Shown here: positions 489-53,686 of the stretch, piece after piece
Layout: every line of letters starts with the position of its first letter
How positions within the stretch are numbered: position 1 is the first letter of the stretch
NCBI GenBank assembly: GCA_965227315.1
Contig: OZ245737.1
Span: 859,517 to 923,516, forward strand
Length of the DNA: 64,000 bases
Reading direction: 5' to 3'
Source of the DNA: Cytophagales bacterium
GTDB taxonomy: Bacteria > Bacteroidota > Bacteroidia > Cytophagales > CCMP332
The notes under the pieces: model-generated
Databases searched by the model: none
What the model saw: the letters and a program-made list of their open reading frames with translations, nothing else
What the model was told of the DNA's origin: nothing
Position numbers and translations under genes: made by a program

Positions 489-570
489 CCAGGGGGCACA
501 CAGAAGGGTTTTGGCTTCAGATTAGGTTTGGCTTTATGCATTAACTTGGGTTTTGCAAAATCCAAAGTTT

Positions 571-5158: not shown

Positions 5159-5159
5159 A

Positions 5160-19403: not shown

Positions 19404-22247
19404 TTAGTTTGAAGAATCGCGAACTTTTAGCACCATTCCGGAATAGAGAACATTGCTGTCAAGTCCGTTCATTTGGCGAAGCCTTGAAACACTTAGGTTA
19501 TATTTTTTGGCGATATCAAACATAGTATCACCCTCTTTGACCACATATTTCCCCGGGCTGACCTCACCGTATGCGGTCTCCTGAGGCTCAACGATCAGCC
19601 TCCATCCGATCTGGATCCTGTTGGAACTGAGACCATTGATCTCCTTGAGCTGGTCAACACTCATCCCATGCATTTTCGCGATACTGTAAAGCGTGTTCAG
19701 GGGTTCAACCACATAGTATTCCTGCCCCTCCTTTAAGGGTGGTAATTGAAGTTGCTCCGTTTTCAACATAGAACCGGAACTGGCCCGCTGAGCCGATGCC
19801 ATGGTCACCGGTGCTATCAACCCGTTATCTCCGGTTCTCCTGACCCTCAATGGCGTCAGTGCATCGATCTGATCTTTGTCCAGATTGTTCACCCTCATCA
19901 ATTCTTCCTTGGGCATGTTAAATAATTCCGCAACGTCAGCAAGGCTGGATTGGGATTCCACTACGTAGGTCATCATCAGGGTTTCGTATCTATGCCCTCC
20001 GGTCACCATGAATTCAGCCCTTCGGTTGATCCTTCTTCCAACTGCGCTTTCATTGCTTCCAAGAGGTTGTAACTCACCCATTGCATTGATCACAAGAGAG
20101 CTTGGCTTTGCTCCTCTGTTCTCAAGATACTTCTCAATCTCTTCACCTCTTTTCTGGGAAAGATCCTTGTTGTAATCTTCTCCCCCAATGGCATCCGCAT
20201 AAGCTGATATTTCCACTTTTGAATCGGGATTGTCCTTTAAATAGGTCGCCAATTCATCCAGGGTCATTTCTGCCTCTCTCCGGATCTTATAATCGTTAAA
20301 GTCAAAATAGATATTCTCGAATACCGTTGCTCCCATCGGGGCTTCGGCTTTTGTCCAGATCAGCTTGGTTTCACCACTGATGTATTTTACATCAGAGATC
20401 AGGGAAAGAAAATCCTCATCTACCACAATGTTGTAATTCCTATCTGAATCAAGATTCTCAAACCTAACGGCACCCAAATGATCGGTCGTAGTCCTTTTCA
20501 GGATATTTCCTTCATCATCAACCAGAAGCACAGGTACATCAACAGCAGGCTCACCGGATTCTGCGACCATAATGGTCGATAGAATGGCAAACTTTCCGAT
20601 CTCTTGCAGTTGGTCTCTCAGGATCACAGCGAGAACCTTCCCATGTCTTGTTTCGGAAAGGTCAATATCCCCGTTAGCGCCGGAATAGAAAACAGTGGAA
20701 TTCAGATCATCGCGTTCCTCCTCAAGCATGACCTGATAACCTTTATCGGAGGTTAGGTCATCAAACTCCACCTGTCCATACTGGTCTGTTTGAGCTCTTT
20801 TTATCAGGTTACCCACCTCATCCGTCAGAAGAACAGGTACATCATGTGCAGGATCTCCGGATTCCGAATAGGTCAGGGTGGCTAAAACCTTAAAAACATC
20901 CTTAAAATTGACACTATCACTATTGACCTTGGCAAGAATGATCTCCTTGGATTCAATATTGAAGTAATAGATATCATCACTACCTGCTCCACCTTCCCTA
21001 TTGCTGGCCATAAGGCCCTTTTTATCTCCCAAATGGAAGTAAAAATCATCCCTGTTCGAATTAAAAGGAAGTCCCAGGTTCCGTGGCTCTCCGCCATCTT
21101 CGAAGAAATACTCAAAGATGTCCAACCCGCCGAAACCCTTTTGTCCGTTACTCACAAAGAACAAAAGCTTCTCCTTGGCATAATACTGAGGAGCCATGTC
21201 AAGAAACGGGGTATTCACCTTCGGGCCAAGATTCCTTGCAGGATTCCAATCTTCCCCAGGGCCTGACTTCGTGCTATACCAGATATCATTGTTCCCAAGA
21301 CCATCGGGTCGATCACTCACAAAGAAGATCGTATCGCCTGTTGGCGTGAGGGTCGGTTGCTTGGTTTCAAAGCCTGGTGTGTTGATCTCATCCGGTAACC
21401 TTTGAGGTTGGATCCACTTCCCGTCCTTTAGTTCGGAAACATAAATTGCGCATGGGTATTCATCTTCAAGGCAACTCGTATAGTATATCTTCTGGCCCCC
21501 ATTTGTAAATTCTGCTGCACCATCGTTCCTAACAGTATTGATATCCGAGAAGTTATCCCGGTCGTCATATTGCTCCCATTTATTGGGACCCGTCTTCTTG
21601 AATCGAAAGATGTCGGTGTATTGACCTCCGAGTCTTACATCGATCTCATTTCCCTTGGTTCCCTCCCTTGAAGAGGCAAGAATGATGGACGAGTCGTTCT
21701 CAAAAAAGGCCGGGGCATATTCCGAAAATTCCGTGTTTACAGGGCTTGGAAGCAGCTCAAACTTATAGTCTCGTAAAGGTTTTTTAAGCTCGTTCATGGC
21801 AAGTTCACAGCCCGCCTGCTCCAGTTTTGCCTCAGTTGTATAGATGGTATCCTCCTCCACTTCCGGCTGATAAGCGGAAAGGAATTTGTCAAATTCTCCC
21901 ACCGCTCGTTGGTATCTTCCATTGCTCTTCAACATCATGGCATACCAGAACCTGACCAGCGGATATTCTTTGTCCGCTCCCAATTTGCCAGCCTGCAGAT
22001 ACTGCTTTTCGGCCTTCAGATAGTCAAAATACAACCTGTAGCATTCGGCAAGCCTGTAGTTCAGATAGTAGTTATTGGGATCATCCTTTAGGGCCCGATT
22101 GTAATAATCTGATGCCAGGTAATACTCTCCGTTTTCGAAGTACTTATCTGCAACTTCAATTTCCGCATCCGACTTTTTTTGAGCCAAAGCCCCGGAGAAG
22201 GGCATGGATACAATGATAAAGAACAGCAGCGCGATTATATTTTTCAT
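19404..22247 (-). CDS. PorE-like OmpA-family protein: TPR, PD40 beta-propeller, 2x CarboxypepD_reg-like, OmpA_C, 3x LysM
   Basis: Signal peptide ..SMPFSGALAQ. TPR region (YYNRALKDDPNNYYLNYRLAECY). PD40-type repeats (TGDTIFFVSDRPDGLGNNDIWYS). Two VPVLL(T/V)D(E/D)xGN units. OmpA motifs (NIYFDFNDY...NRRAEF). Three LysM units (YVVKEGDTMFDIAKKYNLSVSRLRQMNGL and two more). Confidence 0.85.
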   Translation of the reverse strand: MKNIIALLFFIIVSMPFSGALAQKKSDAEIEVADKYFENGEYYLASDYYNRALKDDPNNYYLNYRLAECYRLYFDYLKAEKQYLQAGKLGADKEYPLVRFWYAMMLKSNGRYQRAVGEFDKFLSAYQPEVEEDTIYTTEAKLEQAGCELAMNELKKPLRDYKFELLPSPVNTEFSEYAPAFFENDSSIILASSREGTKGNEIDVRLGGQYTDIFRFKKTGPNKWEQYDDRDNFSDINTVRNDGAAEFTNGGQKIYYTSCLEDEYPCAIYVSELKDGKWIQPQRLPDEINTPGFETKQPTLTPTGDTIFFVSDRPDGLGNNDIWYSTKSGPGEDWNPARNLGPKVNTPFLDMAPQYYAKEKLLFFVSNGQKGFGGLDIFEYFFEDGGEPRNLGLPFNSNRDDFYFHLGDKKGLMASNREGGAGSDDIYYFNIESKEIILAKVNSDSVNFKDVFKVLATLTYSESGDPAHDVPVLLTDEVGNLIKRAQTDQYGQVEFDDLTSDKGYQVMLEEERDDLNSTVFYSGANGDIDLSETRHGKVLAVILRDQLQEIGKFAILSTIMVAESGEPAVDVPVLLVDDEGNILKRTTTDHLGAVRFENLDSDRNYNIVVDEDFLSLISDVKYISGETKLIWTKAEAPMGATVFENIYFDFNDYKIRREAEMTLDELATYLKDNPDSKVEISAYADAIGGEDYNKDLSQKRGEEIEKYLENRGAKPSSLVINAMGELQPLGSNESAVGRRINRRAEFMVTGGHRYETLMMTYVVESQSSLADVAELFNMPKEELMRVNNLDKDQIDALTPLRVRRTGDNGLIAPVTMASAQRASSGSMLKTEQLQLPPLKEGQEYYVVEPLNTLYSIAKMHGMSVDQLKEINGLSSNRIQIGWRLIVEPQETAYGEVSPGKYVVKEGDTMFDIAKKYNLSVSRLRQMNGLDSNVLYSGMVLKVRDSSN

Positions 22248-22313
22248 AATGCTGGTTGAAGAGATCAGCCTATTTTTTCTAAAGAAATAAAAAAAAATCC
22301 AGCCGAGAAAGTT

Positions 22314-24653
22314 CTATTCCTCGTCCTCAGGAGCCTTTACTATGTAAAATTCCACCCTACGACTATATGCAGAGCCCTTTTCTTCAGGGTCGGTTACACC
22401 GGGAATACTCACGGTACTGAGGTCAATTGTTACTTTGGTTTCCTCTCCCATCGGGTATAGTACAAGGGAACTTTCATCTACCTGGCGAAGTCTTAGGTAT
22501 TCCAAAACCGAATTAGCCCGGGCAGCGGATAGCTTGCGGTTGAACTCGGCATTTCCGACCGTGTCCGTATAGGCTGAAATATCCACCTGGATAGTCGAAT
22601 TGTCCTTATAATACCTACCTAGGTCATCCAGAGTCTGCTTTGCATATTGATTCAGATCCTTGGAGCCAAAATCAAAATAAATGTTCTCGAACTTCACGTT
22701 CTCGATCACCGATTCATAGCGCTTGAGGTTCAATTCATTGAATACCACGGAATTATCCGGATTATAATTTGGATCTTCCCGATCCAGGATCACTTTGTAA
22801 TTCCTGTCCGTATCAAGATTTTCGAACCTCATAAAGCCCTTTTGGTTTGTTCTTCCTTTCTTGATGACATTTCCATCTTCATCTAAAAGCAAAACAGGAA
22901 CTCCACCCGCCGGTTCTCCTCCCTCTTCATAGGAGATACTTCCCAAGAGGGCAAAACCTTTAAAATCACCCAATGAATAGTCGGAACCCTTGTTATCCAT
23001 TTTTAAGGTCGCCTGTGGCTGATCCTTGAAATACACCAGACTCAGGTTATCGACGACCTCAATATCATTGATGAAATACCTCATGTCCGCTTGTAGTGCC
23101 GGATCATCAGAATCGATGACAATCCGATAACTTCTATCCGTGGGGATCTCTTCGAAGCGAACGAGTCCATCCGAATCCGTGGTAGTGGTTTTCAGGATCT
23201 TGCCGTTGTCATCGACCAACATCACCTTGACATTAGAGGCCGGATTGTCTCCTGATCCCGAATAATGGATCCTGGTCAGAGCGGTATACTGTTTGAAATC
23301 GTCGAGATACTCGTTCGCAACCATTTTGATGAATTTCTTCCGGCTGGCATATTCAAAAGCATAGATATCGGTCTTTCCCTTACCACCCTCACGGTCGGAT
23401 GAAAAGTAACCCTTTCGTTTTCCCAGAACCAGATAAAAGTCATTTCTACTTGAGTTGAATGGCATTCCAAGATCCTTCACAAAATCCAGGTTATCCCCTG
23501 TGGCCATATAGAGATCAACACCGCCAAATCCCTCGCGTCCGTCAGAGGCAAAAAAGAACGTATGCTCCTTTGGATAATAAGATGGAGAAATATCGGCAAA
23601 CGGAGTGTTGATCCTCGGGCCCATGTTTTTAGCGGCTCCCCATTCCTCGGCCTTGGTTTTGGTAGAGTACCAAATATCCTGCATCCCCTCACCACCTGGT
23701 CTCTCCGAAACGAAAAACAGGGTATCGCCCTTGGGAGTGATAAAGGGGTGTTTATTCTCGGTTTTTGGTGGGTTGATGTTCTCGTTCAGTTTTTCGGTGT
23801 ACCAGGATTTACCCTTTTTCTTGGCCACGAAAATGGCGCAGTTCCCGTCTTCCTCCTGACAGGCTGTGTAATAGAATTTCTTTCCTCCTTTAACAAAGGA
23901 TCCCGGACCATCATTTTTAAAGGTATTCGATACCGATAGGAAGGCTGAACCATTGCTGATTGACCATCTGTTGGTCCTTTTGTTCCATTTCACATAGAAA
24001 TTATCGGAATAGAAGATCTCAGCTTCCTTGTCTTTATTGTCCTGTTTTACCCCTTTTCGATCGGAAGTCAATACAAACATCGAATCGGATACGAGTCCCG
24101 GCGCATACTCATCCGCACCGGTATTAATTGGTCTGTCAAGATTCTCAAAACGAATATCCCTTTCCTTTTTCTGAAGTTCCTTTAATGCGATCCTGCAACC
24201 TTCGGCTTCAAGCACCGCCTTCTCCTTCAGGATCTGGTCCTGCTCCGAGCTTCCATGAAAATTTTCCACAAAGTGATCAAGGATCCCCTTGGCCTCTTCG
24301 AATTGGCCGTTCATCTTGGTGGTCACCCCATACCAGAAATACGCATGAGGAAATTCATCAGCAGCCCCTTTTGCTACGACCTCATAATATTTCTCGGCCT
24401 TGGGGTAGTCGAAAAGCTCATAGTACAATTCCGCCAATTGATAGTTGGCATAGTAATTTTTGGGGTTTTCGTCTATTTCCTTTTCATAGTATTCAAGCGC
24501 ACTGTAACCCTCACCCATTTTCAGGTATTTGTCTGCGATCTTTACATTCTGGGTTAGATATTCCTTTTTAACCTGGTTATCCTGGCCGACCGAAGAGGTC
24601 ACGACGAATAGAACTGCTACCATGGGCAGCAGAAGTCTAAGGTAAACTTTCAT
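22314..24653 (-). CDS. PorE-like OmpA-family protein: TPR, PD40 beta-propeller, 2x CarboxypepD_reg-like, OmpA_C
   Basis: A paralog of the downstream gene: TPR (YYEKEIDENPKNYYANYQLAELY), PD40 repeats (KGDTLFFVSERPGGEGMQDIWYS), VPVLLLDEDGNVIKK, and OmpA (NIYFDFGSKDL...SRRVEFYIV). Confidence 0.85.
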   Translation of the reverse strand: MKVYLRLLLPMVAVLFVVTSSVGQDNQVKKEYLTQNVKIADKYLKMGEGYSALEYYEKEIDENPKNYYANYQLAELYYELFDYPKAEKYYEVVAKGAADEFPHAYFWYGVTTKMNGQFEEAKGILDHFVENFHGSSEQDQILKEKAVLEAEGCRIALKELQKKERDIRFENLDRPINTGADEYAPGLVSDSMFVLTSDRKGVKQDNKDKEAEIFYSDNFYVKWNKRTNRWSISNGSAFLSVSNTFKNDGPGSFVKGGKKFYYTACQEEDGNCAIFVAKKKGKSWYTEKLNENINPPKTENKHPFITPKGDTLFFVSERPGGEGMQDIWYSTKTKAEEWGAAKNMGPRINTPFADISPSYYPKEHTFFFASDGREGFGGVDLYMATGDNLDFVKDLGMPFNSSRNDFYLVLGKRKGYFSSDREGGKGKTDIYAFEYASRKKFIKMVANEYLDDFKQYTALTRIHYSGSGDNPASNVKVMLVDDNGKILKTTTTDSDGLVRFEEIPTDRSYRIVIDSDDPALQADMRYFINDIEVVDNLSLVYFKDQPQATLKMDNKGSDYSLGDFKGFALLGSISYEEGGEPAGGVPVLLLDEDGNVIKKGRTNQKGFMRFENLDTDRNYKVILDREDPNYNPDNSVVFNELNLKRYESVIENVKFENIYFDFGSKDLNQYAKQTLDDLGRYYKDNSTIQVDISAYTDTVGNAEFNRKLSAARANSVLEYLRLRQVDESSLVLYPMGEETKVTIDLSTVSIPGVTDPEEKGSAYSRRVEFYIVKAPEDEE

Positions 24654-25715: not shown

Positions 25716-28700
25716 CTATCTGATCAGGTTCACAGTTCCGGCCTTTTCAAACGACTCTCCGGATCGGAATTTGCCTTTAATATAGTAAGTATAAACGCCT
25801 TGTGGCACATTTCCTCCACCAAGGCTGGTGCTTGTTCCATCCCAGCCCACAAATTTGGCTTCTCCGATATCGGTTGTGCTATAGACCTTGGTTCCCCATC
25901 TGTTGTAGATGGTCAATTCGAATTCCGATGCCTGAACATTGTATCCGTAAACCTTGAACGTGCGGTTTTCAGCGTTTGAACTGTTTGGTGAGAAGGCATT
26001 CGGCAAATAGACCTGTTCGTTGTTTGTTACCGTAAACGGCAGGAAGAAGGTATCGGTACAGCCATTGGCGTTCTCTGCAAGGACACCTGTCATGAATTCA
26101 CCGGCTGAAGCATAAACATGAACAGGATCTACTCCAACACCTGTAGCATCACCGAAATCCCAGAAATATTCAAATGCTGTTTTATCCTCCAGTACAAACT
26201 GTACCGGTTGATCGATCTCACCAACAGGCACCGAAGTCACATACCTCGCTGAGGGAGCATCCAGGAAGCTGATCACCGTATCATCTTCAACCACCAGGCA
26301 TGGATTCGACACTTCCACATTGAAATTCACGGCACCCTGATCCAGGTCAGATGGCACATAGAATGCGGTATCCTGATCAGGATTGATCAGATTGCCCAAA
26401 CCATCGGTGGTCCAAAGTATGCTAATGCTATCACCAGTAAAGAGTCCTGTGAGGAGGACGGTGTCGTTGTTACAATAGGTGTTGGTGTCTACAAGGATGA
26501 CCACCCCGGGATTTTGCAATTCATACACTTCAAAAACTTCAGATGTGTCTTTGCAGTCATCTCCGTTGATCAGAATCAATTGCCATAGCCCTGGTTCATC
26601 TACCGTCACAGTACTGCTTGGGAATGAATCTTGTGTAAACAGATTTCTCCATAGATAGGAAATAACATTGTTATCAGCACTGCTCAGAACCGTGGAATCT
26701 CCCGGACAAATAATACTATCTCCCAAGATCGTGGCATTTGGTATTCCAAACACGGTCATAAAGGCAGAATTCGAAAGTTCCGAGCATCCCCCTAGAGTGG
26801 TGACCCGGACGCTGTAATCGCCGGTGCTGTCTACTACATAAACCGAATCAGTCGCGCCCTGGATAGAATCTCCATCTCTGAACCATTGATAGGTATAGCT
26901 GGTATCCTGAGGAGTAGCGATGAGGATCACGGGCTCATTCGCGCAGAAACTCTGAGGATTGGTTGGCAACATGATCACCTCTGCCAATGTATCCACCTGA
27001 ATAAAGAAGGTATCGAACCTGGTACAGGTTTCAAGTGTGGCTTCAAGGACCACATAAGAGTTTTGCTTGGCCAAGCCCCAGTTCACCAATAACTGACTAC
27101 CGGTCCATGTAATATTGTTGGGGCCATTTGGCTGCTGATCGTTGATAAATGGAGTGATCAGAGTATTCGGTTTCACATTGCTGAGCGTATAGCTTCTGGT
27201 GCTGCCATCGGCACAGGCAGCAACCGGCCAGTCGTCGATCACGATATTTCCGGGATCTTCAGAAATATGAATTGCCAGAAGCGAATCGGTACGACAACCC
27301 GCAGCATTTGTTTGCTGAAGCTCGACGGTGAATGATCCGTTTTGCTGAATAACAAGGACCAGGGTATCATTTGTTACCCCGCCAAGCTGAGATACCACGG
27401 TAACACCCTGTTGTACATCCCAGAAATAAGTATGAGTCGGATCAGGATTGGTGCTCCAGAAAGAGATGGTATCAAATTCCAATTCACAGATGGTATCCCC
27501 GGGAATTGAGCTGGCAATACCTGTAACAGGAGCCGGTGTTAAGGTAACATCCTTGTAAACCGAATCGTAGCAGGGTCCGTTGGTCACGCTGAATGCAACC
27601 CAACCTGTAGGCCCGGTTCCCCATTGAACCGTGACAGTACCCTGACCTGAACTGATGATGGTTCCATTCGGAGAAACATATGAATTATAATTCACTGTCG
27701 ACCATGGACTGAGGCTGTCAACATTGTAAACAACCACCGAACCTTCGCAGGTATCGGTACTACCGCTGAACTCCGCGAATACATTCCTGAATGTCTTAAT
27801 AACTATGGTATCCGTGGATTCACAATTCGCAGAATTGGGGTCTATTCTGGATACCACCAGCGTATCCTGACCGAAATTGCTGAATTGTATGGTATCACGG
27901 AATCCAAGGAAGCCCACACCTGAGAAATTATGCGGCTGGTTCGCAGAACCAGCAGTCAGGTTCCAATCATAACTATCGCCAACTCCAAGGGAGGCTTCAA
28001 AAATTCCCGTACTATCCTGACATATCTCTACCGGTCCTGTTATGGTTACGCCGGGTTTGTTAAAGATCCTGATCGTGGTATCCGTATCAACAGGGCAAAG
28101 CACCACACCGGAAGGATCAGGGCTGAATGTCAGGACAGAAGCCACAGGACTTATCCAGTCAATTGTTACAGTAGCCGTACCCGTGGCAGGAGGCTGGATC
28201 GAGCCATTCGCATTGCTCAAACTCCATGAGCCCGGCACATCAGCCGTATATACCTCAGCTTCCGGCGCACAGACGGTATCCAAACCTGTGATATTATATT
28301 GTTGAAGGGTATCTACGATTACCGTCACCTGGGTGGAGGTATCTGTACATCCGTTGCTGTTGATGATCATCAAAGAGTAATCTCCAGCAGAATCGGTCAC
28401 CATATTGGAGGATCCGAGTGTAGGTCCGAATACAGTATCCACACCATTGTAAACCCATGTATAGATGCTGGTCGGGAATACACTGTCAGCAGCCAGGGTT
28501 ACCGAATTGCCAGGATAAGCACAGAATCGTGCTGTTCCGGCTATGGTATCGACTCCAACCCATGGAAGCGGGTTCAACTCCAGATACACCGTATCAGAAA
28601 CGGCATCGCAACTTCCATCATTGATACTCACATAGTATCCATCTTCCACGAAGATGTCTATTTCATCAAAAGGAGGACTTGGATTAGGAATAGCTCCCTG

Positions 28701-29363
28701 TGCTATACCGAACCAGGAGTATGTAATTATACCACTGGCGGTGGCAGATAAGGTAAATGTATCACCATCGCAAATCGAAACCGTTCCGAAAGTATCCAGG
28801 GTTACAATTGGCAATGCCCTAACTGTGATCGCCAATGAATCAGATATTCCCAAACATCCAAGCGGAGTTTCATAGGTCGCAAAATACCTTCCGGAGTCCT
28901 GTGCAAAGATCTGGAATTGACCATTGGTCAGTAAGGTGTCATAAGGCGTCACCACACCGAGGGAATCTCTGAACCAACGGATACTTGCGGTATCGTAGTT
29001 GGAGAAATTATTCAATTGGATCAACGGCGGAGTTGGGCTTCCGAAGCAAATATCCGTTGAGCCGGATATCACGGATATACCTTCCTGTGCGACGATCTGA
29101 ACTTCAACATTCACAGTATCGGACAGTGTGAAGCAACCGTTAAGTCCAACAACAACGCAATGGAAATCTCCGTCGATCACAAATCCACCATTGCCGAATA
29201 CGATCTTACTCGAATCAATACCACGGAATACGGTATCAGGCTGTACACCAGCTGTATTGATCCAATAATAGGTTTGCCCTGCCACTTGTGGTACCTCCAA
29301 ACTATCACGTTCAATATCGCAAATGGCAATGTCCGTATTATCTACCAGGGTAGCATCCGGCAC
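25716..29363 (-). CDS. C-terminal segment of the giant adhesin: Ig-like Cys-framed modules, a PKD-like domain and a T9SS type B (gliding-motility-associated) C-terminal sorting domain. It has no signal peptide of its own.
   Basis: The C-terminus VYLPNAFSPNSSNAENRTFKV...LTIYNRWGTKVY...WDGT...PQGVYTYYIKG...GTVNLIR matches the type B CTD. A PKD-like YFWDFGDATG..PVHVY lies upstream of it. The called start is a GTG and the frame stays open upstream into the 7010-aa ORF. Confidence 0.85.
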   Translation of the reverse strand: MPDATLVDNTDIAICDIERDSLEVPQVAGQTYYWINTAGVQPDTVFRGIDSSKIVFGNGGFVIDGDFHCVVVGLNGCFTLSDTVNVEVQIVAQEGISVISGSTDICFGSPTPPLIQLNNFSNYDTASIRWFRDSLGVVTPYDTLLTNGQFQIFAQDSGRYFATYETPLGCLGISDSLAITVRALPIVTLDTFGTVSICDGDTFTLSATASGIITYSWFGIAQGAIPNPSPPFDEIDIFVEDGYYVSINDGSCDAVSDTVYLELNPLPWVGVDTIAGTARFCAYPGNSVTLAADSVFPTSIYTWVYNGVDTVFGPTLGSSNMVTDSAGDYSLMIINSNGCTDTSTQVTVIVDTLQQYNITGLDTVCAPEAEVYTADVPGSWSLSNANGSIQPPATGTATVTIDWISPVASVLTFSPDPSGVVLCPVDTDTTIRIFNKPGVTITGPVEICQDSTGIFEASLGVGDSYDWNLTAGSANQPHNFSGVGFLGFRDTIQFSNFGQDTLVVSRIDPNSANCESTDTIVIKTFRNVFAEFSGSTDTCEGSVVVYNVDSLSPWSTVNYNSYVSPNGTIISSGQGTVTVQWGTGPTGWVAFSVTNGPCYDSVYKDVTLTPAPVTGIASSIPGDTICELEFDTISFWSTNPDPTHTYFWDVQQGVTVVSQLGGVTNDTLVLVIQQNGSFTVELQQTNAAGCRTDSLLAIHISEDPGNIVIDDWPVAACADGSTRSYTLSNVKPNTLITPFINDQQPNGPNNITWTGSQLLVNWGLAKQNSYVVLEATLETCTRFDTFFIQVDTLAEVIMLPTNPQSFCANEPVILIATPQDTSYTYQWFRDGDSIQGATDSVYVVDSTGDYSVRVTTLGGCSELSNSAFMTVFGIPNATILGDSIICPGDSTVLSSADNNVISYLWRNLFTQDSFPSSTVTVDEPGLWQLILINGDDCKDTSEVFEVYELQNPGVVILVDTNTYCNNDTVLLTGLFTGDSISILWTTDGLGNLINPDQDTAFYVPSDLDQGAVNFNVEVSNPCLVVEDDTVISFLDAPSARYVTSVPVGEIDQPVQFVLEDKTAFEYFWDFGDATGVGVDPVHVYASAGEFMTGVLAENANGCTDTFFLPFTVTNNEQVYLPNAFSPNSSNAENRTFKVYGYNVQASEFELTIYNRWGTKVYSTTDIGEAKFVGWDGTSTSLGGGNVPQGVYTYYIKGKFRSGESFEKAGTVNLIR

Positions 29364-29374
29364 AGGTAGAACAG

Positions 29375-29435
29375 TTACACTGATGGTTGCCGTATCCGTA
29401 AAACACCCATTGTTGCAAGTCCTACCACCTGGTAA
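29375..29435 (-). other. Frameshift junction joining the 7010-aa and 1215-aa ORFs (apparent 1-nt deletion, most plausibly at about 29408-29413)
   Basis: The upstream frame reads ..DYQVVGLATMGVLRIRQPSV*. The downstream frame, read 5' of its called start, gives ..NNGCFTDTATISVTVLPVPDATLV. That supplies the conserved second Cys and the V.V..P end of the module begun in the upstream ORF. The span 25716-50407 is 24692 nt, which is 2 mod 3. Confidence 0.75.
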
Positions 29436-32400
29436 TCGGTATCTACCAATGGCACCACAGGCTCAATACCATTGGTATTGACCGTACCGGTACTCCAGTA
29501 GAATGAATCCGCCACCAAAGGTGCATTGATCGAAGCCGATAGCTCGGTGGTATCGCCAAGGCAAACAGGATTTGGAACTGCTCCTGAAGTCAGTTTTGGT
29601 TTTGGCAAGACGATCAGCGTATCATAAAGAATGCTGTTACAGGTTCCTTCCACAAAGGTCCACTCATATACAATTTCAAGAGGCTTGGTCAGCGTATCAG
29701 GGAGAGACTGAGAACTCAATATGCCTATTGAATCAAGTCCGCCATTATAGATGAAAATGGAGAATGGTCCGGGCTGAACCCTGAAAACCGTATGGTTAAA
29801 GGTCGGTCCCGCCGGCAGGTTGACCAGGTAGAGAGAGGTAGAATCACCATAACATACCGTATCGTCAGCAAGCCTGATCCTCACATTTGGATATTGTGTC
29901 AATAGTATGGTCACCGTGTCATAGTTCACGCAATCATTGAAGTCTCTGATCTTCAAGGCAAGATTCGATGGAGAGTTTCCGGCGCCGGGCAAATAGGTCG
30001 TAGGGTTGAGTAGCTCGGCTCCCGGTGCTATGAAACCAGGAGGATCAAGAGCGCTCCAGAAGAAGGTATCAATTCCAATAGGGTTTCCGGCATCCGGTAC
30101 GGAATGAACATTCACCAGCGGATTTGATGGACTAGCCGGACAATAGGCCAGGGTGTCGTTCAGGCTGATTGAGCTTCCATCGGTGGAGAAATTCTGAAGA
30201 GGCAGTGGATTCACAAAAACCTGGACCGAATCCATACTTGAGCAGGTATTTTGGTTATTGGTCAAAGCGATATAGAAGATCGTATCCGTTGAAGCCCGGT
30301 AATGAATGGTATCGGTCGTTTTGCCGTTAGACCACAGGATATCCAGCATCCCATAGCTTTGGTAATTGACAGTATCCGTGATCCTCAACACTGTATCCAG
30401 CCCAAAACACATATCAAAGGAATCATTCTGGATGTTGAATGAAGGAAGTTGCAGGGATCTTACGAACTGTGAATCGATCGCAACACAACCGATCGGATCT
30501 GTTACGGTGAGGTAAACCATGGTGTCACCTATATAATTCGCGGTGAAATTCGGGAACTGAAGGGTGTCATCATCAAACAATCCTGAAGGAGCCCATTGGA
30601 AATCGAATGTTCCGTCAAATCCACCTCCCGCGGTAAAGAAACCTCCCATTTGAACAGTCGAGAATTGGCAGAGGGAATCCACAATTGCATTTGGATCGAA
30701 TGTGATTGGTGGATTCACCGTAATGGTCACGGTTCTGACCTCAACGCAAATTCCCAGGCTATCACGGATTGTAACCGAGAACTGATGCGGGATCTGATTC
30801 GCATTGCCAAGAGGATTGAACAGCGGATTTCTTGCATTCGGATCATCCAGGAAGTTGACGGAAGTAGAGGGTATCGAGGACCATACAAAAGTATATGGTT
30901 CGGTTCCGCCTGTTACGGTCACAGATCCATCATATAGCGTATCACCCAGATAAATGGAATCTCCAAAACACAGGGTTGTATCATTGATCAGACCCGCCGA
31001 GATCGAATCATTGACAAAAACGAATAAGCTATCCTCATCGGTACAACCAAAGCTATCACTCACCACCACGTTGTATTGCAATCTCATAGCAGAGTCAGCA
31101 GTCAATGCCGGGTTTGCCAGGCTGGCATCATCCAGCTTGATATTTGGAGTCCAGGTATAACTCAATGGTCCTCCCGGAATACCTGGCAGGTTATTTCCTG
31201 TAGGATTACCGCCTAAGGACGAATCCTGACCATAACAGAGGTAAAGCGTATCAAATACTCCTGGTGCGGTCAAACGATTCGCATCGGCAATGATCCTGTT
31301 GGAGACAGCAATATGAACCGTATCGAAATTATCGCAGAGGAAGCCATTGTCCTGAACCCTGATCACATAATCATACAAGCCAGCTATGATACCATCCATA
31401 GTAGCGGTGTCGTTCAACAGAGTACCACCCAGGTTAGTACCCGGCGTCCAGGTGTAGGTGAATGGTCCTTCATCGCTGATCACATCCGCGATCAATAAGA
31501 GTGAATCCTGGAAGCATGCGATGGAATCAGCATTGCCGAGCAGATCTATGGACCTGGCGTTTACCATCAGAGTATCCCTGACACGGATCTGGATCACCGA
31601 ATCAACAATGCAACTCGCCATGAAGGGGTCCATGTCATCAGTGACCGAAAGAGTCAGCAAGTGAACCCCGGAAGAGTCACCATAGAAATCAGGTTGAAGA
31701 AGTGTATCGTCGTTCAAATAGGTGTTTGGACTCCACAGGTAGCTGAAGTTACCTGATCCTCCAACCACATTGGCCGGGATAGGTTGAATCGTATCCTCGA
31801 AACAGATCACCGTTGAATCGCCTGGGAAAGATGAGATAGAAATCTGTGGGTTCAGTCGAATAACCACCTGATCAACTACCTCACAGATCTGCATACTGGC
31901 AGTATCATAGACGGTCAGCGTAAATGTCACGTCAACCGGCCCGGGCAACGGAGTCACATTATGGATCAATATCGGGTTGGCCGAATCTCCGGAATTGATC
32001 AGGCCGGGGAAATTCGGGATATAAGTCCACTGATATTTAAATGCACCCTGTCCCCCACTTGCTGTCGGCAAACCACCCAGGATCATTGTATCTCCGTAAC
32101 AAACCACGGTATCGACACCGGCATCAACCATGATAGTATCATTCACCCGCATTTGGATGGTATCCCTTCCAATACATCCTATGCTGTCCGTACCGGTCAA
32201 ATAAACCTGATAGAGTCCGGATTGGATTCCCTTGAAGTATGGGTCAGCAATGGTATCGCTTGGGCTGAAAATACCGGCGATCACAGGGTTAGATTCCCAC
32301 TGGTAACTATGCATTCCGATTCCACCCGAATCTCTTGGCTGAACATCGAGCTGAAGGCTGTCCATAAAACAGACTATTGAATCGGGTGCCACCGCGTTTG

Positions 32401-35400
32401 CAACCACTTTGGGGTTATAGACTATCCGTACGGTGTCATATACCTGGCATCCCGCCACGGTATCGGTGATCTCGACCACATAGGTGACATCATCTCCTAC
32501 ATCGATGCTATTGATCACCAATGGGTTAAAAGAAGTGCTATCCGCAGGATCATCGAAATAGGTTGTCGGTCTCCAAATCGGAGTCAGGTTGATGTTCCCT
32601 GAGCCTCCCATGGCTGTGGGGGTTCCGCCAAGCACAGCGCTATCCTCAAAACAGATAATCGTATCATTTCCTGCAAATGGAATGATCTCAGGATTAACCT
32701 GAACCATAACCGTATCTATATCGAAGCACAGGCTATCATCCGTAACCTCGACGATGAAATTGAATGTGTTGACCGTATCTCCAGAGAAAATCGGGTTAGC
32801 AGCATTGGTATCGCTTAGTAAGCCATCATCATCCAGTCCCGTGGACAGTGTCCATGAGTAGGTATATGGAGGATTACCACCGGAGGCAGTCACAGAATCG
32901 GGTACAATACCACCCAGCGTATGCGCCTGGTCGAAGCAGATCAATGTATCATACCCGGCAAAGGCCATCGGATTCTCAAGTTCGATCACATGGAACAGCC
33001 TTGTGGTATCTGTACAGGTGATCACGTTTCCTCCAAATTGTGGGAAAGTGGTGTAGGATTTAGTCAGCACGGCATAATACACACCGGTGGTATCGATCCA
33101 TACCTGATGGGTATCAGCGGCAATGAGGGTGTTTCCAACCGTATCATACCAGTCTACCCTCAGCTCCGGACCCTGGTTATTGTCGATTGAGATCAGGGCG
33201 GAATCCGTATCATCACAGAAAACCGTATCGTGTACAAGGTCGAAGATCAATGAATCATCCAGGAAGTTCACTTTGATTCCGACCGTGTCGGTAAACTGAG
33301 CACAGGTAGCGGGATTCAATCCATTCAGTACTTCCGCATAGTAATTTCCTTCGGTAGTGACTACAAGGGTGTCTGTATTTGCACCTACAATGATGCCATT
33401 GTCATCATACCATTGATAGGAAGGTGCATTATCAGGTTGGTAGAAACCGCCTTTCGCAAACACATGACCATTGTTTTTAAGCTCCAGGTTGAAGGAATTG
33501 GAAGTTGCATCTCCGATGAGATCACCGTCATCGAATATCCCGACCGAATCCATTTGCCATAAGGCAAGCAATCCATGCTCCGTTCCGGAAAGCGGCACAA
33601 GGCTGTTGTTGGCAAAGAATACCCTTGGATGGGCATTTTCCCAGAACCTCACCTCATCAATACTTCCGGGGAATTCGCTCGCCGGCAATGTGGCACATCC
33701 GAAATTCTGATCGATGCCTACCACCAGATCACAGGCAGGCCCCGGAGTGAAGTCGGGCATCACAATATTTTCAGTGGAGTCATAGGCAGATCCTACGCCA
33801 ACCACATGAATGGCCTTGCCTCTGATATTGTCCCACGAAACCGCTACATGGAACCAGTCGCTGGTATTCCAATTGCCATTACTTCCGGTAAGGATAAGTT
33901 GATCGGTACCAGCACCATTGGCGGCGACATCGGTTTCAAACATAATGTCTCCGTTTACATCAAATGCAATTCTGAAATAATCGTTTGCATCCTGATTCTT
34001 CATCATCAAGACGGAGTTTGCTAGCGAGGCGAGGTTATCAATCTTAAAGAAGAGTTCTACGGAGAAACCATTATCTGGTACGAGGTCAAGAAGATTGTTG
34101 GCCTCACCATAACCGGCACCAGTTGTTGACCAATAATTGGTATTCACGGAATTGATCACCAACTCAACAGACCCGTCCTCACAAATGGTGTCCGTCTCAT
34201 AGCGAACGCTATCATCAAATTGTGGTGCATTCCGGATCACCTGGCTGCGACTTGGCTCGGTACACTCTTCCTTGGTGATGGCCACGGTATAAATTCCTGT
34301 CTTGGTAGACCCAAAGTCCCTGCTTGTTGCTCCGGGGATGGTATCCCAGCCGTAGAACCACTGGTAGGTTACGGCAGGAGGTCCGATTTCATTGCTTTCG
34401 AAGGCGACGGAATCACCAAAACATCCCACGGCGATCGGAGATCCCGAACCGAGGAGCAGGTTCAGCGTGGTGTCGATGATCACTTCCCTTAATGGAAGGA
34501 CGTTCGAAGTAGCTGCACAGTTGCCATTTGACACTTCAACCGTTACATCACCGGTGGTATCATAAACAAAGAAATTGCTTGTAAACAATGGTTGAATCGT
34601 GCCATCGACCCTCCATACATATCCCGGGTTGGAAAGTGGAGCTCTGTAATATCCCGAATCAATTCCAAAGAAGGAATTCACAAATGATCCTCCTGCAAAT
34701 CCGGTAACCACTTCTTTTGGTGTGGACCCGGTAGTATCCTCAAAGTTCCACAGTGCAAACAGGTTGGGCTCGGTTCCCCTTAACGGTGTATTCCTGTTAT
34801 GAGCTATCGAGATCGAATCCATAGCATAATCCCAAATTCTCACCTCATCGATCAAGCCGGTCATGAAATAAGGATTTGCTCCTGGTCCCTGTGAGCGCAA
34901 TCCCATATAAATGGTATTTGCTCCCGGACTAACCGCCGTATTATTAAATACACCCGCCATCTCCTTTTGTCCGTCGACATACAGGGTCACTCCATCCAAA
35001 TTAGTGTTGATTGCGGAGTCATAGACAACCGCGATATGATGATACTGATAGTCCCTGAGGTCCGTTGTACCAGTGATCCGGTTGTTACCCGCCTGGTTCA
35101 AGGACAATTCAAGAGCACCATTTGCCCCATTGATCCGGACGATCCAGTTGTTCGTTCCGCCTGTACCCCAGGAAATTATTCCCATGGCCGTATCGGTTTT
35201 CACCCAGGCTTCAACCGATTTGGATCCCGGGCCCCCAAGACCATTGATTCCGGTGTTGATGTATCCGGCCCTGCTTCCTGCAGCATGCCCCTGGACTCCC
35301 GGCACCCAGAGCAATACACTATCGTCTTTGCAAAGGATGCTATCGCCTAATCTGATACTCAACAGAGAATCAATTCTTGGCTTGATGCTGACCTGAGCAT

Positions 35401-38400
35401 AACCCATGGTGTCAATACATGAAGCGTTGGCAGCAAGAATTTGATAAACCCCGGTCCATCCTGCCTCATATGTGGAATCGTTGGCCCCCGCAATGGTATC
35501 ATTTCCATACATCCAGGTCAGGTTGTAATCGGCCGCGACCGAAGGCCCGACAAGGCTTAGCGTGATCGTCTCACCAAAACAGGTATCCGCAACTGCCGCA
35601 ACCGTGCTATCGGCAAATGGAAGCGGTGTTTCTACGATGATGGCCCTGGAAGAATCCGCACAGCCCCTTCCATTATCCACCTTCAGATAGTAATTGCCTG
35701 CCGTATCTACACGCAATGAATCGGCCGTTCCCACAATCTGACCTGAAATGGCCTCTATCCATGTGAAACTGACTCCACCCGAACTGTCTTGGGCAAAGAA
35801 AGTAACAGCCGTATCGCCATAGCAGAAGGTCGTATCCCCTACGATCAGCACACTTGGATCTGTTTCCAGGATGGTGATGGAATCATAGGCGAATGTCTGC
35901 GTGGCACAACTGGCGCTGGAATTCAATTCCAGGCTTACGACATCAAATCCTTTTAGCTCATTGGTCGCATATGTTGTTCCGATATGTCTTAGGGTATCAT
36001 TGACATACCAGCGATATCCCGGATTGGCTCCTTGTCCTCTTACACTATCAACTTCAAATGTGATCAGCTCATCAGGGCAGATCGGATTCATGGGATCCAT
36101 GCTCAGGAACACCTCAGGAGTAACACTACCCGGTAGTGTATTCACTCCATAGGTGAAGAAGACGGAATCCGTTGGGGCCAGACAACCACTTGAGGCATTG
36201 GTAACGGTTACCCTGTAAGTTTCCCCGGCATTTACACCGGTCTGAATACTTGTGAGGTCTGCACCTGCTGCAACCAACTGAACAGAAGGTGAAATTCTTC
36301 TCCAGACATATTGAGAACCAAATCCAAGTCCTACGACATTGGCGCTAAGGTTCGTCAGATCACCATTACATGTCGGATCAGGATCCTGGGTAATGGTCAC
36401 CGAAGGAGTGTTGTTGATCGTAATGGTATCAAAATCTATAGCTGTGGCGGTTCCTGCACCACAGGCAAGACCCTTATTCAGTTCCACGGAAATGAAGAAC
36501 GGACCAGCTCCGGTAAAGGAACGAATGATGGTATCACCGTTGCCGAAGAATGTTCCATTTTCCCTCCAGGCATAGCTTGGGTTATCTCCTTCTCCGGTAG
36601 AAAGCGCTACAAGTCTTACCAGGGACCCGCTACAGATCTCTGTTCCCGGAGTCACCTCGATATCAACCGTTGGGATAATTGGGTCTTGAAGGTCAATTAC
36701 AAGTGTATCCCTATCCGTTGGGACAGCTCCGCATCCGTTTGAGACCAGTTCTACAACCACTTCGTCGCCATCAGCAAGCATGTTCGAGTTGTAGGTTCCA
36801 GATGAATTGGTTGCCACAAGCCCACCGTTGACAAACCAGTTGTAAACCGGGCTGGTGCCCTCACCGGATACCGTGGTTGAGAAAGTGACATTGTCACCCG
36901 AACAAACAGGGTTTGCAGGAGACTGGGCAAGGCTTACGCTTGGTGTCACAACAGGATCTACCGTAGTCGACTGGAATGCAAGGAAGCTCTGTCCGGTGTT
37001 GCACGAGTTCGGGTCAGCAGTCAGGTTCAGGGTGATCAGGTTGGTCCCCGGACCGATCTCAAATGAGTTCGATGGTGCGCCCGCCACGGTTGTCAATGTG
37101 ATCTGATCAAGATTTGAGATCGGTGGTCCGGCGGGTGGAATGACATTCCATTGATAACTTGGATTTGCACCCCCGCCAATGACATTGGCAGTATAGGTTA
37201 CAGTCTGTCCGATACATAGATCTCCTGAAGGGCTTTGGTCTATAGATACCTGCAGTGGAACCGTAAGGCTGCCCTGAATAAAGATCGTATCAGCTGCGGT
37301 TGGCATGGAGGCGCAGCCTGGAGGATTGCTTGAAGTCATGATGACCGCCACTTCATCTCCATCCTGAATGTTGACGAAGGTTACATTGTCTAAGCCTGTT
37401 CCCTGAGCCTGAAGCCCTCCGTTGAGAAACCATTGATAAGAAGGAGAAGTACCGCCACCGGAAGGATTAGCAGTGAAATCCACATCATCACCAATACAAA
37501 CGGGGTTGTCAGGGCTTTGTGAGATCGAAACCTCAGGAGTAATTGGGTCCTGGATCTGGATGATATAGGAATCATTAACGATTGCTCCTGAAGATTTACA
37601 AGAAGCGTTGCTATTGAGCTGGACTGAGATTGAGTCGCCGCTTACAGTATTTCCAGGGTAGAGGTAGCTGGTTCCAAAGGCAACCGGGTTTGTACCCAGG
37701 TACCAGGTCGGAACCGCTGTTCCCTGTCCAACCATGATAGCTTCAAATTCCACATCCTCATTTGGACAAACAGGTCCGTTAGGATTGGCGCTGATAGAGA
37801 TCGAGGGCGTTACTGAATTGTCAACAACAACCAAAACCGAATCAAGCACTACATCCGGGGAATAGCAACTTGGCGCTTTGGACATCCTCACTTTCACATA
37901 ATAGCTTCCGGCCGGGGTGAAAGTGGTATCGAATATTGTACTGTCCGTACCAGCGGGATTATTATCAATAAACCACTCATAAACCGGATTTGCGCCCCCA
38001 CCCACATTGGAAGCCTCAAACTGAACCGGGTCATTGATACAAACCGGTGAAGCCGGACTTTGAACAATACTCACCGTAGTCGTACCGCCTGTTGTGGTAT
38101 TGATCGTAACCTGATCCGTAACCGAACCGACAGTTGCACAGGCAGCTGTGGTAGTGAGTGTGAAGCTAAATTCGTCACCATCATTCCAATTTGTGGACAG
38201 GACAGTCAAGGAGTCATCGGTACCGATTACAGCGCCTCCGTTTCTTCTCCAGGCATAGGTATCCGAAGGTCCAGCTCCGGTGATGTTGGCAACAAGGAGC
38301 AGATCGTCGGTGGCACAAACAGGATTTGCCGGGAACTGATCAATGCTCACCACAGGAGTAATTGAGTCTACCACGATCATCAGGGTGGTATCTTCCACGA

Positions 38401-41400
38401 TCCCCGCAGGTGCAGGAATACATCCCATTCCGGTCACATCCAGTGTAACTCTAACAAGATCTCCATCCGTTGGTGAATATGAATAAGAGTTGCCGGTTGA
38501 AACGATCGGACCACCATTCACCGTCCATGCCCATACAGGAGCGTTTCCTGTATCAGTAGCAACTACCGTGAAGTCTACCAATTCCCCATCACAAACCGAG
38601 CCCGGAGGATCCTGAACCAGGGAAACGGTTGGCGGCACATTGGGATTCACCAGGACTTCAGCCGAATCTGTGATGTTGGCATCAGGTGCGGCCACTCCGC
38701 AGCCATTGGCATCGGATATGGAATCGATATAGTAAGTGGTATTGACAGTGGGGTTTACAACGATATTGTCTCCCGAAGTATAGGGGAATATGTCTGTTGT
38801 ATTTGTTCCGTCGGTGTACCTGACAAAATATGGTGCGGTTCCGGTAGTAAAATTCACCTGAATGTTTGCAGAAGAACCATCACAAATGGATTGGTTCAAA
38901 GGCGTCATATTAGCAGCAGCGGTTGGATTCACAAGGGAAGTGGCATTGCTGGTGATAACTGTAGCCGCACAGAATGGTGGCGTACTGGTCGTAGCTGAGA
39001 CAAGCGTATAAGTGGTCAATGCCGGATTTGTTGGCACATGCCAGATCGTATCCCCTGAAGTATAGGGAGAAGGAACGACAGGATTAGCGCCTATATCCGC
39101 AACAATGGTGATCAGATATGGCCCTGCTCCTCCTACGAAATTCACAACCAATGGAATAGAGTCACCTTCGCAGATCACCGCACCACCGGTCAAGTTGGCC
39201 GAATCTACAGGGTCAAAGAACTCAACATCCATTTCATCAAATGAGTCAGCACAGGTTCCGTTGGAAATCGTCCACCTCAAAGTATGCGTTCCAAGGAATC
39301 CGTTGGAATAGGCTGAGGAATTGAATTGAGAGCTATCACTGAAGGTCACCTGTCCAGGGCCCGATTGCCATGTCCAAACTCCATTTCCTACACCTGGGTC
39401 CGGGTTGTTGGCCGCAAGTATCGCCGAATCTCCGCAGAGTCCCAATTGGTCTCCTCCCGCATTCGCAGTTGTTGGGTTCGCAAAGAACCAAACCAGGATC
39501 TGATCCCTGAGGGTATCACAGGATCCGTTAAAGGATTTCCATTCCAACAATACCTCCACTGTATCCTCCGTACCGGTGAAAACCACTGAGGCCGTGGCGT
39601 TCGGCAAAGTAGGATCGTTAAACGACACTCTCGGGATAGCACTGATATCCTTCCACCTACCCTGCCCTGAGGTAATGTTATTTGCAGAAAGAACAATTGA
39701 ATTAGAACATATTTCAGCACTGTCGGGGCCGGCATCGGGTATCGTCGGATCGGCAAAGAAGTCCACCGTGATCGAACTTGCACTTGGGGTACATGAACCG
39801 GAACTGATCGTCCAGGTCAACTGATACTGCCCGTAAACTCCATTATGCCTTGCAATGGTGTTGAACAGTGTATCATCATCAAAGGTGATCACTCCACCGG
39901 CGGGAGCAAGAGTTGTTGTCCATTGTCCCGTTCCTACTATAGGATTATTAGCTGCCAGTTCTACGGTATCGGCACAAATACTATCTGTAACCGCACCGGC
40001 AACCGAGGTAGTTGGGTCCTCATCAAAAGTGATCAGAACGGTATCACCCACCGATGGGCATGGATCATTGGCAACCGTCCATGATAATTTGTAGGTGCCA
40101 TACAATCCCGGACCCGTTGTATGAACTACGGAAGTCGGACTGTTTCCATTAACAAAATTGATATTTCCTGATACGGGATGCTCAGTCCAAAAAGAGGAGA
40201 ATGGACCAGGATTTGATGCCGCCAGGGTTGTGAACGTGTCGCAAACCGATTGGTCCGGGCCTGCAAAAACCGGAATTAAAACCCGATCTCTGAATCCAAC
40301 CGTAACCGAATCCTGATCCACGGGGCAATTACCGTTGCTGGTGGTCCACATCAAAATGTAATTTCCATCCGTAGATCCATAAGCTTCAGATTTTGGATCT
40401 GCAGGATTATCAAAGGTCACAACTGCAGGACCTGAAACAAACGACCACATTCCTGATCCAACAGTGACTATATCGGCGTTCAAACCCACGGTGTCACCGC
40501 AAACGGAGGTATCGTTTCCGGCAAATGCAGGAGTCGGATTATCAAAGAAGGTGATCTGAACCGTATCGGCTGAGTCGAGGCATACTCCGTTGCCAAGGCT
40601 CCAGCTCAATTCATATACTCCGAAACCACCTGCCGTAAAGTCTGTGTTGAATACCGTGCTGTCCACAAAGACGTGACCTGCCGGACCGCTCACTACCTGC
40701 CAGTAACCATACTCACCTGCTGCAGGCATGTTACCAGCCAATGTGGTGGTCAGCTGACAGACCGAATCAGGGGTACCTGCGTTCGGAACCGTAGGATCAT
40801 CGAAGAAGGTGATCTGAACCGTATCGGCTGAATCCAGGCATACTCCGTTGCCAAGGCTCCAGCTCAATTCATATACTCCGAAACCACCTGCCGTAAAGTC
40901 TGTGTTGAATACCGTGCTGTCCACAAAGACGTGACCTGCCGGACCGCTCACTACCTGCCAGTAACCATACTCACCTGCTGCAGGCATGTTACCAGCCAAT
41001 GTGGTGGTCAGCTGACAGACCGAATCAGGTGTGCCTGCATTCGGAACCGTAGGATCATCGAAGAAGGTGATCTGAACCGTATCGGCTGAATCCAGGCATA
41101 CTCCGTTGCCAAGGCTCCAGCTCAATTCATATACTCCGAAACCACCTGCCGTAAAGTCTGTGTTGAATACCGTGCTGTCCACAAAGACGTGACCTGCCGG
41201 ACCGCTCACTACCTGCCAGTAACCATACTCGCCTGCTGCAGGCATGTTACCAGCCAATGTGGTGGTCAGCTGACAGACCGAATCAGGTGTGCCTGCATTC
41301 GGAACCGTAGGATCATCGAAGAAGGTGATCTGAACCGTATCGGCTGAATCCAGGCATACTCCGTTGCCAAGGCTCCAGCTCAATTCATATACTCCGAAAC

Positions 41401-50502: not shown

Positions 50503-51768
50503 TTATTTACTTGCCTCTATCAGGGTGGTGGTGTACACCCGCCCGTCTGCAAAAAGTTTAATTATATAGGCTCCGGATGGCAAGCCCAGATCAACGGTTT
50601 CGAACCTCCACTCGTAGGCACCCGAGAACAAATGCTGATCCTCGATCTCCTGAACCTTGATCCCCTTGAGGTCATATACCTCGATCAAAACATCCGATTC
50701 CTTCACCAGGTCGAGATAAATATTGGTATTGCCAAAATATGGGTTGGGATAAACACCTACTCTCGATGCAATTACGCCTTGCCCTAAGGTATTGGCTGTA
50801 TAGTTGAAAGGATCAGAAACAGATTTCCCACAAGTGTTTGAAACCTCCACAGTATAGGACCCGCTTTGCGTGGGAACCAAAGTTTGCTCTGTGGAGCCGG
50901 TCAATACATTTCCGTTTAAGTACCATTGATTGCCTTCCTCGGAAGAGCTGGTAAGGGTGCCTTGATTTTCTGCGATAAATGGTTTTTCAGGTTGTTGCAC
51001 AACGTTGATCACGAGAGGATCTGAGAATTTTTCCACCGAACAGCTTCTATGTCCCACCCTATATGAACCAGTCGCATTCACTGAAAATGTAGAGTCAGTT
51101 CCGGAGATCAGTACAACACCATCCTTTTCCCAAATGACTTCATGATTTTTTGGATTCTGCGTTGCCAGGGTCACAGTGGTGCCCGCACAGACCTTAACAG
51201 GGCCGTCATAGATCAGCGAAGGTTCGGCAGGTGCTTCAAACAATGGCAAACTCGGATTGCTCATCACAAAGCTCAGCTCCGACTTGATGGATTTTGGCCA
51301 TGGGCTGATCTCATATTCCGTAACCTGGCCCCATTTGGTATCCCACTCTATATGACTTTCCGAACAGGTATTCAGTATAGGTATCCTTACTGTACCGACG
51401 GGTTTGGCGACCGTTTCGACGAATACACCGGAGCCGTTTCCGTTGTTGTTTTCATTGATGCGAAGAACAAGAAGATTATTGGCATGAAGGCTCATGGCGA
51501 TGTATGAAGACGGATCGGAGGAAACATCAAATGACCTGGGTTGACTCATATCTATATATGCACCTCCCAGATCCAATACACCGGGCAAAACCCTGAACGG
51601 AATATCTGTACCACCCAAAGCCACCTGAGGACCATTCACCACCTTGGCCGACACCTGCAATACGATCTCATTGCCATCTCTGCTTTGCTGCGCCTCAAAC
51701 ACGACCTCTGCCATCGAAGGCAAGGACAGGAACAGTACAAATGCAAGCAGTGAGTAAAGTCTTTTCAT
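50503..51768 (-). CDS. Secreted protein with a T9SS type A (Por) C-terminal sorting domain. Its N-terminal domain is homologous to that of the giant adhesin.
   Basis: Signal peptide ..LFLSLPSMAE. The type A CTD is VYPNPYFGNTNIYLDL...IEVYDLKGIKV...LPSGAYIIKLFADGRVYTTTLI. Ig-like Cys-framed modules lie in the middle. Confidence 0.85.
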   Translation of the reverse strand: MKRLYSLLAFVLFLSLPSMAEVVFEAQQSRDGNEIVLQVSAKVVNGPQVALGGTDIPFRVLPGVLDLGGAYIDMSQPRSFDVSSDPSSYIAMSLHANNLLVLRINENNNGNGSGVFVETVAKPVGTVRIPILNTCSESHIEWDTKWGQVTEYEISPWPKSIKSELSFVMSNPSLPLFEAPAEPSLIYDGPVKVCAGTTVTLATQNPKNHEVIWEKDGVVLISGTDSTFSVNATGSYRVGHRSCSVEKFSDPLVINVVQQPEKPFIAENQGTLTSSSEEGNQWYLNGNVLTGSTEQTLVPTQSGSYTVEVSNTCGKSVSDPFNYTANTLGQGVIASRVGVYPNPYFGNTNIYLDLVKESDVLIEVYDLKGIKVQEIEDQHLFSGAYEWRFETVDLGLPSGAYIIKLFADGRVYTTTLIEASK

Positions 51769-51774
51769 ATTTAC

Positions 51775-53586: not shown

Positions 53587-53686
53587 TATCCGACGACTAA
53601 AAATAAGCAAAAATCGATGCAAGGATACCCCTTGTACGGGAAATAAACCAAAAAGTTTAGGCTTAAATCCTGGTCTTACGATTATT

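Follow-up and report, generated by a model that had tools for sequence, protein, structure and literature searches.

Two adjacent open reading frames (ORFs) of 7010 and 1215 codons, located on the reverse strand of the window, i.e. the entire 64-kb stretch of DNA analysed here, very probably represent a single gene for a T9SS-secreted surface adhesin of ~8,230 aa, from which one C is missing in this assembly by a break that is not programmed. As predicted from its domains, the adhesin would comprise an N-terminal Sec signal peptide, ~50 Ig-like modules, at least one ConA-like lectin domain (Laminin_G_3) and a C-terminal domain (CTD) of type B (CHU_C). The absence of one C of a Thr codon ACC (29411/29412, -) would shift the reading frame inside one of the Ig-like modules. 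At the level of sequence, comparison with two relatives shows one gene with a one-base deletion and no decay since. The break may therefore be read either as a loss-of-function deletion that arose very recently in the clone or population sequenced, or as a single-base consensus error. Either way, the split has an ordinary cause, a broken gene or a base-call error, and does not point to a new mechanism. The features of the locus are compiled in Table 1.

Table 1. Features of the adhesin locus and its downstream neighbours
Feature	Position in the window	Strand	Basis
Proposed whole adhesin gene with the base restored (~8,230 codons plus stop)	25716..50407	-	24692-nt span; frame in L001 and L003 uninterrupted across the junction and ending at the same stop (..NLIR*)
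Upstream ORF (7010 aa, ATG start): signal peptide, >45 Ig-like modules, Laminin_G_3 ConA-like lectin domain(s), without CTD	29375..50407	-	
Predicted Sec signal peptide (MLRKLYLISILLLCSIGAYS followed by Q)	50348..50407	-	Sequence reading and hydrophobicity window 2.68
Ig_7-like module across the break (PKPKLTSG..VVGLAT / NGCFTDTATISVTVLPVP)	29358..29605	-	Pfam Ig_7, module HMM, P0001 alignment
Overlap with both frames open (88 nt), the sole stretch where recoding could act	29375..29462	-	
Missing-base site: window GCA AC/A ATG vs GCA ACC AAT/C in both relatives	29411..29412	-	Pairwise and three-way alignments
Downstream ORF as called (1215 aa, GTG start): Ig-like and PKD modules and CTD, without signal peptide	25716..29363	-	
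Type B C-terminal sorting domain CHU_C (PF13585)	25755..26006	-	54 bits vs cut-off 27
PorP/SprF-family outer-membrane partner gene, directly past the adhesin stop codon	24672..25715	-	TIGR03519, 200.6 bits vs cut-off 90.55
Two tandem PorE/CHU_0125-like genes with OmpA domains (779 and 947 aa)	19404..24653	-	NF052230 and NF053607, both under equivalog cut-offs; OmpA C-terminal domains

The reading frames at the junction

The downstream ORF begins 11 nt past the upstream ORF, and the two frames are offset by one base. In line with the initial annotation, the distance from the first start to the last stop amounts to 24692 nt (2 mod 3). Past ..VVGLAT, the upstream frame continues with MGVLRIRQPSV*, i.e. 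the eleven residues and the stop codon described before, which results in the terminus ..DTDYQVVGLATMGVLRIRQPSV*. Likewise, the downstream frame is indeed open 5′ of its called start, already from position 29462, and reads ..CNNGCFTDTATISVTVLPVPDATLV.. ahead of the GTG. In the restored frame the peptide spanning the junction would be ..VVGLATNGCFTDTATISV.. / ..YQVVGLATNGCFTDTATISVTVLPVPDATLVDNTDIAICDIER, as opposed to ..GLATMGVLR in the truncated frame. The junction DNA is unique within the window, and thus the "repeat" at this position exists at the level of the protein domain only. A public collection lists the 1215-aa product as a protein of its own (P0025), encoded on an NCBI/ENA contig of 3,565,586 nt, and likewise contains the 779-aa and 947-aa PorE-like proteins on this contig.

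Two relatives carry the missing base in one open frame

A scan of GTDB species representatives yielded contig JANQHS010000285.1 of a Cytophagales MAG (L001), which is collinear with the window from 31450 to 18562 and shares 90.6% nucleotide identity over 12.9 kb. The second relative, Logan contig SRR20820735_27481 (L003/L004), was found by exact look-up of the PorP/SprF protein encoded in the window and is 94.6% identical over 13 kb. The alignment to orthologs, which had been proposed together with the frameshift, revealed exactly one extra base at the site in both relatives. At the junction, L001 reads GGACTTGCAACCAACGGGTGT vs GGACTTGCAAC-AATGGGTGT in the window. In codons, the window reads GCA AC- AAT GGG, L001 reads GCAACCAACGGG and L003/L004 reads GCAACCAATGGG. 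The three-way alignment of the window, L001 and L003/L004 places the difference at 29411/29412, where one C of GCA-ACC-AAY is absent from the window only. The prediction that one base added in ac-aatggg restores LATNGCFTD was thus borne out, as both relatives carry this base, a C that completes the Thr codon ACC. Moreover, the gap at the junction is the sole true indel of the window against either relative in ~13 kb. The remaining BLAST gaps are compensating pairs only a few bases apart, which resolve to substitutions.

In L001, 1911 codons without interruption lead from the contig end to the stop after the CTD. In L003/L004, the gene preceding porP has a called length of 5405 aa and runs to the contig end, and translation of L003:2-10000 yielded 3333 codons without a stop, reading ..VVGLATNGCFTDTATISVTVQPVPDATLV... 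The sequence ..VVGLATNGCFTDTAT(I/V)SVTVQPVPDA is found in both relatives, within one uninterrupted frame that extends to the type B CTD stop. With one open frame up to this stop in both of them, the relatives support the original claim that the 7010-aa and 1215-aa ORFs constitute one gene of ~8230 aa interrupted by a single-base frameshift. Neither L001 nor L003/L004 contains two ORFs with a signal peptide on the second.

Further searches covered several other sources. A protein search with the junction-spanning sequence returned two distant matches only, and the proteins of the relatives, which are cut at the contig ends, are not in that database. Scans of metagenome contigs yielded either nothing or only a paralogue-like locus (L002) at 22% identity. 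A further Logan contig (L005, SRR20820736) stops at window position 29120, ~290 nt short of the junction, and a search of the literature on the accessions returned nothing relevant.

Signal peptide and sorting domain are distributed over the two ORFs

The initial annotation had placed a signal peptide only on the upstream ORF and a type B CTD only on the downstream one, and both assignments hold. The N-terminus of the upstream ORF, MLRKLYLISILLLCSIGAYSQ, combines a basic n-region with a hydrophobic core (Kyte-Doolittle mean 2.68 over 12 aa), and Pfam did not find a CTD in its 7010 aa. The downstream ORF matches CHU_C at residues 1120-1203 (Pfam PF13585, 54 bits vs a cut-off of 27). The score of TIGR04131 on the same ORF, 27.4 bits, is under its cut-off of 35. 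This ORF starts with GTG and has an acidic N-terminus, its first Met is residue 321, and it is devoid of a signal peptide. As assembled, no polypeptide carries both signals; they are united only when the missing base is restored, as in L001/L003.

The restored junction module matches Pfam Ig_7 across the break at profile positions 7-84 of 84, with a score of 22.3 bits that is under the cut-off of 27.3, a threshold that other modules of the giant protein pass. The truncated junction module gave no Pfam match. The restored module aligns with modules of the distant homologue P0001 and, according to an HMM built from it, is approximately the 48th of ~53 Ig-like modules. Thus, the initial description of a split "13th SprB-repeat-like module" is correct in that a module spans the break. 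Its number and its kind have to be revised, as the module is Ig-like and the SprB repeat is located elsewhere: Pfam SprB repeat (PF13573) gave one partial match only (profile positions 18-33 of 37), away from the junction. The wrong count and label leave the conclusion unaffected. The module types present in the giant protein are Ig_7, PKD-like and K319L-like PKD.

Two stretches of the protein match Laminin_G_3 (ConA-like lectin/glucanase superfamily, 103.8 bits), one at window ~34700-35270 (-), corresponding to residues ~5048-5198, and the second further on. These domain matches suggest a carbohydrate-binding function among the Ig-like modules. In addition, we observed a tandem array at 40536-45197 (-), in which ~18 units of 258 nt encode Ig-like modules of 86 aa (residues ~1737-3291). 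The first nine copies of the array are mutually 92-98% identical in DNA.

Purifying selection persists on both sides of the break

Comparison of the window with L001 in the restored frame yielded a dN/dS of 0.031 upstream of the break (dS 0.54) and likewise of 0.031 downstream of it (dS 0.46). With L001 as outgroup, the substitutions could be assigned to branches. Downstream of the break, the window branch carries 104 synonymous and 22 non-synonymous changes and the L004 branch 88 and 11, respectively; upstream of the break, the window branch carries 64 synonymous and 9 non-synonymous changes. Unconstrained drift would give mostly non-synonymous changes. For the downstream part, the difference between the window branch and the L004 branch is not significant (Fisher p=0.19), and hence relaxed selection was not seen there. 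Judged by these substitution counts, the downstream part is under strong purifying selection for essentially the whole window branch. The equal ratios on both sides, together with the lack of relaxation on the window branch, argue that the break would be either very recent, or an artefact, or somehow bypassed.

Programmed frameshifting, phase variation or two genes

Bypass of the break by a programmed -1 ribosomal frameshift, by transcriptional slippage or by a phase-variable on/off switch would provide full-length adhesin at some frequency or in some cells. The change required is -1, the commonest programmed type, the purifying selection on the downstream part is what would be expected were the break bypassed, and surface adhesins are classically subject to phase variation. 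However, the overlap 29462..29375 is devoid of a slippery X XXY YYZ heptamer, as had been noted from the outset, and its longest run is T4, while at the site itself the relatives have CC and the window a single C. TRF detected no tandem repeats in 29000-29800. Moreover, the predicted fold of the RNA between 29430 and 29300 is no more stable than that of shuffled sequences (MFE -33.1 kcal/mol vs a shuffle mean of -33.4, z = 0.09), which argues against a stimulatory structure. Keeping the conserved Cys of the module would demand a shift within GCAACAATGG, which is not slippery, and both relatives, at 91-95% identity, are in frame, so that the shift is not conserved. Based on motif, structure and conservation, a programmed frameshift is not supported, and neither is a slipped-strand phase switch, given that a homopolymer or short tandem repeat tract is absent at the site. 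Taken together, this group of explanations, which includes the on/off frameshift switch that the initial annotation had offered as an option, appears very unlikely. We attribute an even smaller probability to a variant in which the single-C state is real and tolerated because low-level non-canonical -1 frameshifting or reversion in the population supplies full-length adhesin, which would amount to an on/off switch without a repeat.

The least credible reading is that of two genuinely separate functional genes, one for a periplasmic or otherwise exported protein of 7010 aa and one for a CTD-bearing protein of 1215 aa. Both are called as ORFs, and the smaller product has its own entry in the public collection. 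This reading is contradicted by the position of the break, which bisects an Ig-like module, as well as by the properties of the second ORF, namely the lack of a signal peptide, the GTG start, the acidic N-terminus and the late first Met. Moreover, the 16 codons 5′ of the GTG evolve as coding sequence in the downstream frame, with 5 synonymous and 2 non-synonymous differences from L001 in the alignment read by eye. The continuous gene in both relatives, i.e. the presence of intact orthologs, refutes a pair of separate genes in practice.

Recent deletion or consensus error

Given one gene with one missing base, we asked how the break is to be interpreted. An error of the consensus or of base calling falls under the one-gene explanation and is set apart since the biology differs: the organism would truly have ACC (or another ACN), and the intact gene would be split only in the deposited sequence. 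In support of an error, both ORFs are open over their 7010 and 1215 codons without secondary decay, dN/dS is equally low on both sides, and the window branch is unrelaxed. The absence of secondary decay fits an artefact and a very recent mutation equally well. In addition, the source is a 3.57-Mb contig that runs through the array of 18 units of 258 nt, while the short-read Logan contig of a relative breaks off within that array, at a point corresponding to window ~41931. The source assembly is thus almost certainly long-read based. The deletion of one base from CC is typical of residual long-read error. Such errors are typically single-base deletions, mostly in homopolymers longer than CC. 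On the other hand, there is no other broken gene in 64 kb, all 74 of the 74 coding homopolymers of at least 6 nt are in frame and lie within intact ORFs, and the break is not located in a long homopolymer. Long ORFs cover 97.6% of the window, and the other genes have full-length domain matches. Mis-polishing driven by repeats is unlikely because no paralogous copy of the junction DNA exists in the window.

We give a genuine, very recent deletion about an even chance and consider a consensus error a serious possibility somewhat short of even, with everything else sharing the small remainder. The slight lean towards a genuine deletion would follow from the lack of broken genes in the rest of the window and from a site that is neither homopolymer nor repeat.

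T9SS cargo requires both a signal peptide at the N-terminus, for export by Sec, and a CTD, with which it passes the outer membrane (PMC9143113). In the case of a real deletion, the 7010-aa product would be exported across the inner membrane, yet would lack the CTD required by the T9SS, and the CTD-bearing remainder would have neither a signal peptide nor a credible start. Neither fragment could thus reach the surface, and the allele would be null for surface display. The lineage would then have very recently lost surface display of its largest adhesin, and it would provide a natural knockout that can be compared with its intact relatives. The main value of the finding lies in annotation: the entries of 7010 aa and 1215 aa should be merged into a single gene of ~8,230 aa that is marked as frameshifted. 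If they are left separate, the former resembles a secreted protein without a sorting signal and the latter T9SS cargo without a signal peptide.

Other genes in the window

Pfam OmpA is also assigned to the PorE-like genes in the Logan annotation, and the 947-aa PorE-like protein additionally shows C-terminal LysM-like matches. Directly upstream of the adhesin gene, the region 50503-53724 (-) encodes a protein of 421 aa, which has weak Ig-like matches and a T9SS sorting domain of type A (Por_Secre_tail/TIGR04183) and is preceded by a 649-aa ORF without a family match. At the other end of the window, the ORF 553-1242 (+), encoding 229 aa with a weak match to an outer-membrane beta-barrel, ends with a stop that is followed by the in-frame ATG of the Omp85-family ORF 1243-2349. 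The Pfam match to Omp85 in the latter begins only at profile position 40. As judged from this arrangement, the region 553-2349 (+) could contain two genes or one gene with an in-frame stop.

Comparison with known systems

The window also contains a classic programmed +1 frameshift in prfB (release factor 2; 59963-61049, +), with the shift site at ~60007-60026 and the motif AGGGGGTATCTTTGAC. A short leader ORF ends CTT TGA C after the SD-like AGGGGG, and the PCRF and RF-1 domains follow in the +1 frame. The body ORF spans 60114-61049, and its PCRF match starts from profile position 28. The adhesin junction resembles this site in that two overlapping frames encode one protein. In contrast to prfB with its conserved AGGGGG-TAT-CTT-TGA-C, it is devoid of a motif, a structure and a conserved shift. 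A further parallel is found in frameshift pseudogenes and assembly frameshifts in long repetitive genes, with which the junction shares a single-base indel, adjacent ORFs on the same strand, one split domain and an intact orthologue. Only the size of the adhesin gene and the total lack of further decay are unusual.

With respect to its architecture, the locus resembles SprB/SprF of Flavobacterium johnsoniae, a giant type B CTD adhesin system (PMC9143113): both comprise a very large, repetitive Ig-like surface protein with an N-terminal Sec signal and a C-terminal CHU_C, and a gene of the PorP/SprF family follows directly. The PorP-like protein serves as the binding partner of type B cargo (PMC9143113). 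In contrast to SprB, the modules identified here are Ig_7 and PKD-like together with Laminin_G_3, with one partial match to the SprB repeat, the porP-like gene is followed by two porE-like genes, and the adhesin is broken by a one-base deletion. The features of an SprB orthologue, namely many PF13573 repeats and an sprF without an adjacent porE-like gene (cf. Discussion, PMC9143113), are not found at this locus. Since a role in fixing non-mobile cargo to the cell wall has been postulated for porP-like genes beside porE-like genes, in contrast to the mobile SprB with SprF (PMC9143113), the protein would, by analogy, be a wall-anchored giant adhesin rather than an SprB orthologue. The order of genes for type B CTD cargo, PorP-like protein and PorE-like protein with OmpA domain would fit the anchoring complex PG1035-PorP-PorE described for Porphyromonas gingivalis (PMC9143113). 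In contrast to that complex, the predicted cargo here comprises ~8,230 aa, and there are two PorE-like paralogues, both of which score under the NCBIfam cut-off for PorE. The locus thus adds an example to each of two known kinds, namely giant adhesin loci with a type B CTD and genes that are split by an indel of a single base.
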